Assembly (NCBI RefSeq): GCF_054482595.1
Contig: NZ_CM137008.1
Direction: 5' to 3' (one strand)
Length of the DNA: 64,000 nt
The notes under the pieces were generated by a model, which saw only the letters and a program-made list of their open reading frames with translations, searched no databases and was not told the origin of the DNA. Below are positions 1,191 through 4,850 of the stretch, in pieces. The position numbers and the translations under genes are program-made. Every line of letters begins with the position of its first letter. Positions within the stretch are counted from its first letter, which is position 1.

Positions 1191-1685
1191 ATGGCTGGAA
1201 CGGCGGGGCGTTCCGGGCGTCGCCCCAAGCCAACGGCGCGCAAGGCGCTGGCCGGAAACCCCGGCAAGCGAGCCCTGAATAAAGATGAACCTGTTTTTAC
1301 GCCCATCAAAGGTGTTGAGCCACCGGAGTGGTTCGCTGAAGAAGATCTCCCTCTCGCCACGATCATGTGGCAACTGACAACCAAAGAACTCTGCGGTCAG
1401 GGCCTGCTGTGCGTGACTGACCTCGCGGTGCTTGAGCGGTGGTGTGTGGCCTATGAGTTCTGGCGACGTGCCGTGAAAAATATTGCCAGACAGGGCAACA
1501 CCATCACCGGTGCAATGGGCGGTATGGTCAAAAATCCTGAGCTGACCGCCAAAAAAGAACAGGAGTCCGAGATGAGCAGTACGGGGGCAATGCTCGGACT
1601 CGACCCCAGCAGCCGCCAGCGTCTGATTGGCCTGGCGGGGCAGAAGAAAGCCACTAACCCGTTTCTGAAAATTATCGAATCATGA
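1191..1685 (+). CDS. Terminase small subunit (P27 family)
   Basis: [14 protein letters not shown]... N-terminus typical of P27-family TerS; aggag SD at 1178..1182; ORF track start 1182 is a GTG three codons upstream. Confidence 0.85.
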
Positions 1686-3415
1686 GCCGGAAATCTTATC
1701 CCAACGTAAATGCTGCCAATCAGTATGCCCGGGATGTCGTTCGCGGAAAGATTGTGGCCTGCCAGTTTGTGATTCAGGCCTGCCAGCGCCATCTTGATGA
1801 CCTGATGGCGGAAAAAAGTAAGTCGTTTCGTTACCGCTTCGACAAGGACCTGGCTGAACGGGCCGCCAAATTTATTCAGCTGTTGCCGCATACCAAGGGT
1901 GAGTGGGCATTCAAACGGATGCCCATCACGCTGGAGCCGTGGCAGCTCTTTGTGATCTGCTGTGCGTTTGGCTGGGTCAATAAAGGTACCCGGCTGCGCC
2001 GCTTCCGGGAGGTGTATACCGAAATCCCCCGTAAGAACGGCAAATCGGCAATCTCTGCCGGTGTCGCCCTGTATTGTTTTGCCTGTGATAACGAGTTTGG
2101 CGCGGAAGTGTATTCCGGTGCCACGACAGAGAAACAGGCGTGGGAAGTCTTTCGCCCGGCGCGACTGATGTGTAAACGCACACCCATGCTGACGGAAGCG
2201 TTCGGGATTGAGGTTAACGCCTCAAACATGAACCGTCCGGAGGATGGCGCGCGGTTTGAGCCGCTGATCGGTAACCCCGGTGATGGTTCATCACCCCACT
2301 GTGCGGTGGTGGATGAATATCACGAGCATGCCACCGATGCACTTTACACCACGATGCTTACCGGGATGGGGGCGCGACGTCAGCCACTGATGTGGGCCAT
2401 CACCACCGCCGGGTACAACATTGAGGGGCCGTGCTACGACAAGCGGCGGGAAGTTCTCGAGATGCTCAACGGTTCGGTACCCAACGATGAACTGTTCGGG
2501 ATCATCTATACCGTTGACGAAGGCGATGACTGGACCGACCCGCAGGTGCTGGAAAAAGCCAATCCAAATATTGGCGTGTCGGTTTATCGCGAATTTTTGT
2601 TAAGTCAGCAGCAGCGTGCGAAAAATAACGCCCGTCTGGCAAACGTCTTTAAAACAAAACACCTCAATATCTGGGTGTCGGCGCGTTCGGCGTATTTCAA
2701 CCTGGTGAGCTGGCAGAGCTGCGAGGATAAATCACTGACCCTTGAGCAGTTCGAGGGGCAGCCGTGCATTCTGGCCTTTGACCTGGCGCGTAAGCTGGAT
2801 ATGAACAGCATGGCGCGACTTTATACCCGCGAGATTGACGGTAAAACGCATTACTACAGTGTGGCCCCGCGTTTCTGGGTACCGTATGACACGGTGTACA
2901 GCGTCGAGAAAAATGAAGATCGACGGACAGCCGAACGCTTTCAGAAATGGGTGGAAATGGGCGTTCTGACCGTTACCGATGGTGCGGAAGTGGATTATCG
3001 CTACATCCTCGAGGAGGCCAAAGCGGCGAACAAAATCAGCCCGGTCAGTGAGTCACCCATCGACCCCTTCGGGGCGACCGGGTTGTCACATGACCTTGCT
3101 GATGAAGACCTGAATCCCGTCACTATCGTCCAGAACTTCACCAATATGTCCGACCCGATGAAAGAGCTGGAAGCGGCGATTGAATCGGGACGTTTTCATC
3201 ATGACGGCAATCCCATCATGACCTGGTGTATCGGCAACGTGGTCGGCAAAACCATTCCGGGTAACGATGATGTGGTGAAGCCCGTCAAAGAGCAGGCGGA
3301 AAACAAAATCGATGGTGCAGTTGCGCTGATTATGGCGGTTGGCAGAGCCATGCTGTACGAGAAAGAAGACACGCTGTCTGACCACATTGAGTCCTATGGG
3401 ATCCGCTCGCTTTAA
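1682..3415 (+). CDS. Terminase large subunit
   Basis: 577 aa ORF directly after TerS with ATGA start/stop overlap; size and position typical of TerL. Confidence 0.9.
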
Positions 3416-3426
3416 CTGAGGTAATT

Positions 3427-3609
3427 ATGATCATGCTGATTCTCGCGCCTCTGGTGGGCGTGCTGGGGGCGCTTTTGCTGGCGTATGGTGCCTGGCTGAT
3501 TTATCCCCCGGCGGGGTTTGTTGTTGCCGGGGCGTTGTGCCTGTTCTGGTCGTGGCTGGTGGCGCGATATCTCGACCGTACACAGTCGTCTGCCGGCGGA
3601 GGTAAATAG
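3427..3609 (+). CDS. Small hydrophobic protein (two predicted TM helices) between terL and portal
   Basis: 60 aa [49 protein letters not shown]; gagg SD 6 nt upstream; tightly packed between terL and portal. Confidence 0.45.
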
Positions 3610-4850
3610 TGTTCTTTTCGGGATTATTTCAACGAAAAAGTGACGCACCGGTGACCACGCCAGCAGAGCTGGCGGATGCTATCGGGTTGTCCTACGACAC
3701 CTATACCGGAAAGCAGATCAGCAGCCAGCGGGCCATGCGACTGACGGCGGTTTTTTCCTGTGTCAGGGTGCTGGCGGAGTCGGTCGGGATGTTGCCCTGC
3801 AACCTGTATCACCTGAACGGCAGCCTGAAGCAGAGAGCCACTGGCGAACGTCTGCATAAGCTGATCTCCACGCATCCCAATGGCTATATGACGCCGCAGG
3901 AGTTCTGGGAGCTGGTGGTCACCTGTCTGTGCCTGCGGGGAAACTTTTACGCCTACAAAGTGAAAGCATTTGGCGAAGTGGCTGAACTGCTGCCCGTCGA
4001 TCCCGGCTGTGTGGTACCGAAGCTTAACAGTAGCTGGGAGCCGGTCTATCAGGTCACATTCCCGGATGGCTCCACGGATGTACTGAGCCAGGAGGATATC
4101 TGGCATGTGCGCACGCTGACGCTGGACGGACTGGTGGGGCTGAATCCCATCGCCTATGCCCGCGAGGCAATATCGCTGGCGGCAGCGACCGAAGAGCACG
4201 GGGCCAGACTGTTCAGCAATGGCGCGGTGACGTCGGGTGTGTTGCGTACAGAGCAGACGCTGTCAGATCAGGCTTATGAGCGCCTGAAGAAAGATTTTGA
4301 GGAGCGTCACACCGGGCTTGGCAATGCTCACCGCCCGATGATCCTTGAGATGGGGCTGGACTGGAAGTCGATGGCGCTGAACGCCGAGGACAGCCAGTTC
4401 CTGGAAACCCGCAGGTTTCAGCTTGAAGAAATCTGTCGTCTGTTCCGGGTGCCGTTGCACATGGTGCAGAACACCGATCGCGCCACCTTCAACAATATCG
4501 AAGAGCTGGGGCTGGGATTTATCAACTATTCACTGGTGCCGTATCTGACCCGCATCGAACAGCGGATCAACACCGGACTGGTACGAAAAAGTAAGCAGGG
4601 CGTTTATTACGCCAAATTTAACGCCGGGGCGTTACTGCGCGGGGATATGAAGTCCCGTTTTGAAGCCTACGCCACCGGGATCAACTGGGGAATTTACTCT
4701 CCCAATGACTGCCGCGACCTGGAAGATATGAATCCGCGTCCCGGTGGTGATGTCTATCTCACACCGATGAACATGACCACGAAACCCTCCGATGGCAGTA
4801 AAGCCGGTAAGCAGAAGGATAACGCCAATGCAGACGAAACAACGTCTTGA
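3609..4850 (+). CDS. Portal protein (HK97 family)
   Basis: 413 aa ORF, GTG start with ggagg SD, position after TerL. Confidence 0.85.
   Translation: MFFSGLFQRKSDAPVTTPAELADAIGLSYDTYTGKQISSQRAMRLTAVFSCVRVLAESVGMLPCNLYHLNGSLKQRATGERLHKLISTHPNGYMTPQEFWELVVTCLCLRGNFYAYKVKAFGEVAELLPVDPGCVVPKLNSSWEPVYQVTFPDGSTDVLSQEDIWHVRTLTLDGLVGLNPIAYAREAISLAAATEEHGARLFSNGAVTSGVLRTEQTLSDQAYERLKKDFEERHTGLGNAHRPMILEMGLDWKSMALNAEDSQFLETRRFQLEEICRLFRVPLHMVQNTDRATFNNIEELGLGFINYSLVPYLTRIEQRINTGLVRKSKQGVYYAKFNAGALLRGDMKSRFEAYATGINWGIYSPNDCRDLEDMNPRPGGDVYLTPMNMTTKPSDGSKAGKQKDNANADETTS

Follow-up and report, generated by a model that had tools for sequence, protein, structure and literature searches.

We analysed a 64,000-nucleotide (nt) stretch of DNA (NCBI RefSeq assembly GCF_054482595.1, contig NZ_CM137008.1; hereafter the window), in which a 60-codon open reading frame (ORF), ymfR, is situated between terL, the gene for the large terminase subunit, and the gene for the portal protein. 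The product of ymfR is a small hydrophobic protein that is predicted to form a two-helix membrane hairpin, and the gene is inherited together with the portal gene across recombination events that swap terL. Its position directly upstream of the portal gene, its overlap with the portal start, the portal Shine-Dalgarno sequence embedded in its 3' end and its co-inheritance with the portal mark ymfR as an accessory gene resident in the portal/head-assembly module, not an insertion; in the phage group of the window it is an ordinary gene rather than a foreign acquisition. The overall best explanation, to which we assign a probability of about 0.4, is that this portal-module resident acts as a membrane partner of the portal. 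The existence of the gene as such is nothing new, as it is already catalogued under the names ymfR, phrog_502 and 'putative integral membrane protein'.

The link with the portal is evident from a mirror-tree comparison of 70 unique loci (2415 pairs), in which the correlation of hairpin with portal divergence (r = 0.90) far exceeds that of hairpin with terL (r = 0.41). Controlling for terL leaves the hairpin-portal correlation at 0.88, while controlling for the portal reduces the hairpin-terL correlation to 0.04. Similarly, hairpins have a mean identity of 27% in the 119 pairs that combine terL identity above 90% with portal identity below 40%, and of 90% in the 22 pairs where, conversely, terL identity is below 50% and that of the portal above 90%. 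For example, phage phi467 shares with the window only 39% of terL but 90% of the hairpin and 99% of the portal; the reverse is found in SfV (96%, 29% and 29%) and in EPP-1 (90%, 25% and 28%). Mosaic joints with phi467, SfV and phiP27 are located at the terL 3' end (window 3200-3415), and the last ~155 nt of terL retain 75-90% DNA identity across Vibrio, Burkholderia, Halomonas, Edwardsiella and SfV phages, so that the 3' end of terL looks like a recombination hotspot at the boundary of the packaging and head modules.

The junctions of the gene are consistent with such a link. On the + strand, ymfR (3427-3609) extends from an ATG to a TAG stop codon and is separated from the terL stop (3413-3415) by an 11-nt gap, which contains a GAGG Shine-Dalgarno sequence (3418-3421, +; read from ctGAGGtaattATG) 5 nt before the ATG; the same arrangement precedes the hairpin gene in phiP27 and phi467. 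An earlier note, made from the letters of the window alone, had described a 60-codon ORF with its own gagg ribosome-binding site between terminase and portal, and this description is borne out, the position being confirmed by Pfam matches of both neighbours: terL (1682-3415, +) matches TerL_ATPase (PF03354, 8.7e-26) and TerL_nuclease (PF20441, 1.2e-34), and the downstream gene (3609-4850, +) matches the HK97-family portal (PF04860, E = 1e-107). At the 3' end, stop and start overlap in the sequence TAGTG (3607-3611, +), G3609 being common to the ymfR stop (3607-3609) and the portal GTG (3609-3611). The Shine-Dalgarno sequence of the portal, GGAGG (3598-3602, +; ggcGGAGGtaaaTAGTG), lies within the last ymfR codons, which explains the conserved Gly-Gly at the C-terminus of the protein. 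The portal start was inferred by scanning the portal frame, beginning 25 nt upstream of the hairpin stop, for the earliest start codon; so defined, it fell between -10 and +5 nt of that stop in 70 of 70 loci. The window type has an overlap of 1 nt and the SfV type one of 7-11 nt, whereas a short gap separates the two genes in the Burkholderia and Vibrio types. This arrangement suggests that ymfR is translationally coupled to the portal gene.

The position of the gene is fixed well beyond the window. In a survey of 80 IMG/VR loci encoding terL relatives (67-100% identity), a family hidden Markov model (HMM) run against 5342 ORFs gave 67 matches, each of which follows terL directly on the coding strand, with no match at any other place. 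One further member was recognised by eye (L088) and four of the 80 loci were not evaluable; the hairpin gene is present in 68 of the 76 evaluable loci and in all named relatives fetched (phiP27, SfII, ST64B and phages of Klebsiella, Yersinia, Edwardsiella, Burkholderia and Vibrio, as well as Pseudomonas D3). A membrane peptide at this site, which the earlier note regarded as unexpected, is thus the usual condition, and the rule behind that expectation, that terL is followed directly by the portal gene, holds for HK97 but not for the phage group of the window. The absences coincide with different portal subtypes and are not sporadic among collinear relatives. Among remote metagenomic members, seven of eight are located directly upstream of a PF04860 portal, and among these seven are contexts in which the terS/terL family is a different one, one in which the protease is of the ClpP type, and one that lacks an upstream terL.

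The hairpins occupying this slot extend over several families that have been catalogued separately. SfV, with a terL 96% identical to that of the window and a different portal, possesses in the same slot a 53-codon ORF that likewise encodes a hairpin, and further hairpins occur there in Yersinia YeP1, Edwardsiella EPP-1, Salmonella F1055, Burkholderia phi644-2 (gp3), Vibrio VPBES and Pseudomonas D3 (Orf3), with a truncated copy in Halomonas QHHSV-1. The SfV/EPP-1/F1055 type corresponds to phrog_7105 and the Vibrio type to phrog_4810; the SfV, Burkholderia and Vibrio types cross-match phrog_502, phrog_7105 and phrog_4810 (E = 1e-4 to 1e-7), and D3 Orf3 was assigned by inspection against Vibrio/L089-type members. 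Identity between subfamilies drops to 25-40%, but they align nearly gap-free and agree in size, two-helix hairpin and conserved glycines. A profile search of 1.84 billion cluster representatives retrieved 1044 at E <= 1e-3, nearly all of them 47-84 amino acids (aa) long and matched end to end, and even remote members keep the core ...YG-x-W-L-I-Y-x-P-A-G-F.... The source names of the homologues are all 'hypothetical', 'putative membrane' or 'prophage protein', and the named hosts are all Proteobacteria. By these comparisons, phrog_502, phrog_7105, phrog_4810, D3 Orf3 and Burkholderia gp3 form one superfamily of ~1000 clusters (defined at 50% identity), whose members belong to head modules of the HK97 type. 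Possibly under-appreciated so far are this union of three PHROG families with D3 Orf3 and Burkholderia gp3, the almost constant junction of the superfamily with the start of an HK97-family portal gene, and an inheritance that follows the portal and not the terminase.

Some members deviate from this pattern. In Halomonas QHHSV-1 (L009, 2222-2314) an annotated 30-aa ORF matches only helix 1 of the SfV-type hairpin and is followed by a 95-nt gap before the portal; this short copy is probably due to a frameshift, a sequencing error or decay. In P0172 a hairpin is fused in frame to a portal N-terminus, P0219 and P0265 each consist of two hairpins in tandem with four transmembrane segments (114-122 aa), and a frameshift affects the C-terminus of the L037 hairpin (71 aa). 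Assembly errors may account for some of these four, and the tandem hairpins would fit self-association.

Phages with as little as ~25% identity retain the frame, the length and the hairpin, and the ratio of non-synonymous to synonymous substitution (dN/dS) is 0.24-0.33; ymfR is thus a genuine protein-coding gene and more than a chance ORF. The earlier note had made its case dependent on such a comparison with relatives, and the ORF is indeed present in them and conserved as a coding frame. Mean dN/dS is 0.33 for the 34 unique hairpin sequences of type A and 0.28 for the 16 unique ones of type B, with 0.235 and 0.265, respectively, in the transmembrane core, and codon position 3 is the most variable; the hairpin gene is thus under purifying selection. 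A very low dS relative to phiP27 had suggested constraint at the nucleotide level, i.e. an RNA element. This possibility was rejected, since the low dS results from a mosaic tract of 93-96% identity (~3382-3781) within a background of 65-79%, which covers ymfR and the first ~170 nt of the portal gene, and comparisons with Klebsiella and Yersinia phages gave no excess nucleotide conservation over ymfR.

The protein has the properties of a membrane hairpin, as the earlier note had read from its translation: hydropathy and structure prediction agree on two putative transmembrane segments. Its grand average of hydropathy is 1.18, residues 1-46 being hydrophobic and the last 14 polar or basic. From a 25-sequence family alignment, AlphaFold2 predicted a helix-turn-helix hairpin (helices at residues 2-23 and 27-56, with a break at 24-26) at a mean predicted local distance difference test score of 70.9. 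Helix 1 (residues 1-23; 3427-3495, +), supported by hydropathy, AlphaFold2 and the alignment, contains G14 and G21, which are invariant among the 25 members and, spaced i/i+7, lie on the same helical face. It is followed by the predicted periplasmic turn L-I-Y-P-P (residues 24-28; 3496-3510, +), by helix 2 (residues 29-46; 3511-3564, +) with the nearly invariant G35, recognised by the same three lines of evidence, and by a polar/basic tail, R47 to K60 (3565-3606, +), predicted to be cytoplasmic from family counts of lysine and arginine (K+R). The turn reads Y-P-P-A-G in the window peptide, and the motif Y-x-P-A-G is kept in remote family members. Among 126 two-transmembrane family representatives, mean K+R is 1.27 in the N-terminal tail, 0.21 in the loop and 2.60 in the C-terminal tail; 82% of the loops have no K or R, and 98% of the C-terminal tails have at least one. 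Under the positive-inside rule this asymmetry indicates a hairpin with both termini in the cytoplasm (N-in/C-in), in which the turn exposed to the periplasm is very short and the tail on the cytoplasmic side is basic. Taken with these predictions, YmfR would be a late-expressed inner-membrane protein.

How such a protein could serve the portal is suggested by T4, where portal assembly is initiated at the membrane with the help of a phage membrane chaperone (gp20/gp40/YidC; PMC9958956, PMC9026906). By analogy, we tentatively propose, as something possible but short of probable, that YmfR is a late attachment or nucleation partner of the portal in the inner membrane. Transcription of the gene would be confined to the late operon, with translation immediately ahead of the portal gene on the same mRNA, and its product would insert into the inner membrane in N-in/C-in orientation, exposing a turn of 3-5 residues to the periplasm and a basic tail to the cytoplasm. 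The small residues G14, G21 and G35 could mediate tight helix packing or self-association, and the hairpin might then offer newly made portal subunits a site of membrane attachment or nucleation, so that portal ring formation and procapsid initiation would occur at the membrane. The effect would be helpful yet dispensable, because several lineages have lost the gene. A more specific version, which is doubtful at present, holds that hairpins self-associate through their glycine faces and that their cytoplasmic tails bind the hydrophobic N-terminal peptide of the cognate portal, so that nucleation of the portal ring and initiation of the procapsid would be membrane-bound. If true, membrane-bound head initiation would extend across a very large group of HK97-type phages, and membrane-initiated head assembly, so far a peculiarity of T4 and jumbo phages, would be widespread by way of an unrecognised, non-homologous small protein. 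The likeness to T4 gp40 is one of proposed role only: gp40 is a small membrane-associated phage protein, as YmfR is predicted to be, and is needed for assembly of the gp20 initiator on the inner membrane (PMC9958956), but it is 114 aa long and its gene is remote from gene 20, beside uvsX and gene 41. Homology between the YmfR family and gp40 was considered and rejected on the hhalign result (probability 0.07%, E = 0.69).

The N-termini of the portals bear on this proposal in both directions. In a comparison of the window portal (3609-3640) and the surveyed loci, most portals of hairpin phages have a short hydrophobic peptide at the N-terminus (MFFSGLF, MLLDALF, MGLFNSL and the like), mostly of the form M-(F/L)-(F/L)-x-x-(L/M)-F, while portals without a hairpin (HK97, L062, L080, L082, L087, L090) have a polar or charged N-terminus. 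D3 and VPBES depart from this pattern, and their portals share a 'SLTDGxFW' N-region with the hairpin-less L062/L082/L087 type. The pattern is a weak hint of a link between hairpin and portal, coming from a small, phylogenetically non-independent sample with exceptions. Several further points weigh against a portal partner at the membrane. The resemblance of the D3 and VPBES portals to those of L062 and L087 implies that the hairpin is not obligatory for that portal type. In eight surveyed loci terL runs straight into a different portal subtype, and in HK97 it is likewise followed directly by the portal; the hairpin gene is accordingly an accessory gene, dispensable on evolutionary timescales. 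Purifying selection on it is weaker than on terL and the portal gene, which have a dN/dS of 0.06-0.09. Co-inheritance with the portal may in part be a by-product of adjacency and of the recombination hotspot at the terL 3' end, and a physical interaction of hairpin and portal is speculative. The gp40 comparison speaks against homology with the T4 chaperone, no HK97-type procapsid is known to require the membrane, and the literature holds no experimental evidence for any function of the YmfR family.

Among the alternatives, a holin-like or antiholin-like protein that modulates membrane energisation or the timing of lysis late in infection comes to mind on account of architecture. Class II holins and pinholins such as S21 of phage 21 have ~50-70 aa, two transmembrane domains, N-in/C-in topology, a basic C-terminal tail and small-residue faces. 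YmfR matches them in length, predicted topology, tail and glycine-based packing faces, but this architecture is not specific to holins, and Pfam and PHROG holin families gave no match at E < 0.1 (best PF07332, E = 0.2, one member). The hairpin gene, moreover, is coupled to the portal gene and never found beside an endolysin; SfII has a complete S/R/Rz/Rz1 lysis cassette elsewhere, at a distance of ~6 kb on the circular map and upstream of the HNH and terS genes, and a hole-former encoded at the beginning of the late operon would be produced at an unsuitable time. An ASKA clone of ymfR produced a D-alanine halo in a first-round bioassay, which could reflect leakage or lysis, as the authors state for many ASKA halos upon over-expression, but the signal was gone in the second screen (PMC10299036). 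Use of this result as evidence of non-toxicity was rejected in view of the same statement. Taken together, we consider a lysis function unlikely. An explanation in terms of translation, by which the gene is a coupling spacer that lets ribosomes re-initiate on the portal and sets portal dosage relative to terL, with a peptide of little or no function, accounts well for the nearly universal stop/start overlap and embedded portal Shine-Dalgarno sequence, for a protein-level constraint weaker than that on the neighbours, and for the direct coupling of terL to the portal through an ATGA overlap in lineages without the hairpin. It leaves unexplained why two transmembrane helices, G14/G21/G35, the positive-inside charge asymmetry and a length of 50-68 aa are kept across more than 1000 clusters down to ~20% identity, why dN/dS is well below 1, and why the Y-x-P-A-G turn persists in remote members, and it is quite improbable as the whole account.

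The earlier note had itself raised the possibility of a moron-type insertion, which in functional terms would make YmfR a superinfection-exclusion or lysogenic-conversion protein that is expressed from the prophage and alters the envelope or blocks incoming DNA. Exclusion proteins such as HK97 gp15 and T4 Imm are indeed small inner-membrane phage proteins, sometimes inside structural operons. They differ from ymfR in having their own expression signals and a sporadic distribution. No sigma-70-like promoter site was found upstream of ymfR, a terminator-like stem-loop within it is insignificant, and its G+C content at third codon positions (0.705) shows no anomaly relative to the portal gene (0.688) and terL (0.649). 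Furthermore, the position and the start/stop overlaps are kept across genera, and the gene co-evolves with the portal and is present in 68 of 76 relatives. PHROGs does place phrog_502 in its category 'moron, auxiliary metabolic gene and host takeover', but it seems to apply that category by default to a 'membrane protein', and PADLOC gave no matches. In K-12, ymfR is transcribed under SOS-inducing stress, with a log2 fold change of 4.52 upon treatment with an SOS-inducing antibiotic conjugate, but this induction affects all e14 genes together (PMC10012262), and deletion or replacement of ymfR had no host phenotype, the locus being used as a neutral integration site (PMC9145139). The insertion suggested by the earlier note is thus not upheld, and a moron function is very unlikely. 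We give the least credence to a virion-associated or ejection protein, which would be carried in the particle together with the portal or on it and would help DNA entry from within the inner membrane of the recipient. A head-module gene coupled to the portal would suit this role and hydrophobic segments do occur in ejection and tape-measure proteins, but a hydrophobic hairpin of 46 residues is unlikely to stay soluble in the capsid, these phages are contractile-tailed with tail machinery of their own, the PDB profile search was empty, and literature searches turned up no structural or proteomic record of such a protein.

The window protein itself is identical in 59 of 60 residues (98%) to YmfR of the Escherichia coli K-12 e14 prophage, matches phrog_502 ('membrane protein') over residues 1-55 at E = 2.7e-28, and is annotated in RefSeq as 'ymfR: protein YmfR'. 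Searches of Pfam, NCBIfam, PADLOC and PDB returned no significant family covering the product, while 164 homologues were found at E <= 1e-3. The region is present in 1372 of 5426 complete E. coli genomes and is 96-99.6% identical in vB_EcoM-720R4, the Shigella phages SfII, SfIV and SfI and Salmonella ST64B, 86% in phiP27 and 70% in a Klebsiella phage. Named orthologues are SfII_03, phiP27 L37 and ST64B Sb3, and the ORF is labelled 'putative integral membrane protein' in the records of SfII, phiP27 and 118970_sal3. In e14 a nearly identical protein is likewise flanked by terL upstream and the portal downstream, but these neighbours are truncated pseudogenes, while those in the window are intact: in K-12 MG1655 (L105, 7900-9637) an intact ymfR lies between a terL without its N-terminus and a portal without its C-terminus, the latter fused to a baseplate J remnant. 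These truncations around an intact gene indicate that e14 is a deletion derivative of an SfII/ST64B-like myovirus prophage, and they render a portal-related role moot in e14. Excision of e14 always removes ymfR (PMC11541549, PMC12956098). The literature that mentions ymfR does not address its function, and nothing functional was found in that on terminase/portal membrane proteins, phrog_502, ST64B or SfII/SfIV. This uncharacterised K-12 'y-gene' could nevertheless serve as a tractable handle on whether portal or procapsid initiation of the HK97 type uses the membrane, and it raises a second question, why many phages keep a membrane peptide in the head operon.

Annotation of the ORF is inconsistent, and the present comparisons may help to correct records in which it is missing (SfV, SfIV), mislabelled as 'gpW' (several phages) or placed in the 'moron' category (PHROGs). 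It is called 'head-tail joining protein W' in the records of vB_EcoM-720R4, -689R6 and -606R7 and of Salmonella As1. Lambda gpW is a soluble head-completion protein of similar length encoded in the same slot, between A (terL) and B (portal), whereas the ymfR product is a hydrophobic membrane hairpin, and no gpW family matched the window protein among the Pfam or PHROG results. The label therefore appears to be a positional mis-annotation borrowed from the lambda order A-W-B. A description of YmfR as 'terminase protein A family' (PMC9145139) is likewise a mis-description. In the SfV record (L003, U82619.2) the hairpin ORF (2289-2450, 53 aa, MKSLIADVIGLAGFGLL...) is unannotated and is crossed in another frame by the annotated portal start, GTG 2392; the true start is likely GTG 2440, which gives an 11-nt overlap with the hairpin stop like that in EPP-1. 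The hairpin ORF is absent from the SfIV record too, and the SfIV genome paper passes over it.

Elsewhere in the window, an HNH gene (715-1065) and a P27-type terS (1182-1685), both identified by Pfam, precede terL, and the protease and major capsid ORFs after the portal were assigned from the collinear gene order of phiP27 and SfII, whose records are annotated; the head module is intact. Within ymfR, a scan found a terminator-like stem-loop (3445-3472, +), annotated in SfII as 'putative rho-independent terminator', but an intragenic terminator was rejected, as the folding energy of -22.8 kcal/mol does not differ from that of shuffled sequences (-22.1 +/- 2.2, z = -0.30). An antisense ORF of 78 codons (3412-3648, -) overlaps ymfR fully; its translation is of low complexity and rich in R, Q and P, conservation analysis gave it no support, and it probably results from the high G+C content of the codons on the sense strand.

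Genes between terminase and portal have also been described in papers on SPP1 and a Microbacterium phage, and these are unrelated to the YmfR family. A single context without an adjacent portal was found, in a compact element of L099 (JGI contig 3300023213, 3095-6495), where an 80-aa hairpin homologue (P0150) follows a Rep_O/HTH gene, further upstream, a terS (Terminase_4) and a 198-aa ORF, and precedes a major capsid gene and an S78 protease. No terL or portal was seen there, a TIR/DUF4062 gene lies downstream, and the locus could be a capsid-forming, satellite-like element. In L085 (4308-4982), and at the same position in L081, a gene with Bro-N and ORF11CD3 domains (Pfam 2.3e-11 and 3.4e-14), resembling an antirepressor, is situated between terL and the hairpin gene. 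The hairpin-portal junction is intact in both, and this gene is a genuine moron-type insertion at the terL/hairpin junction.

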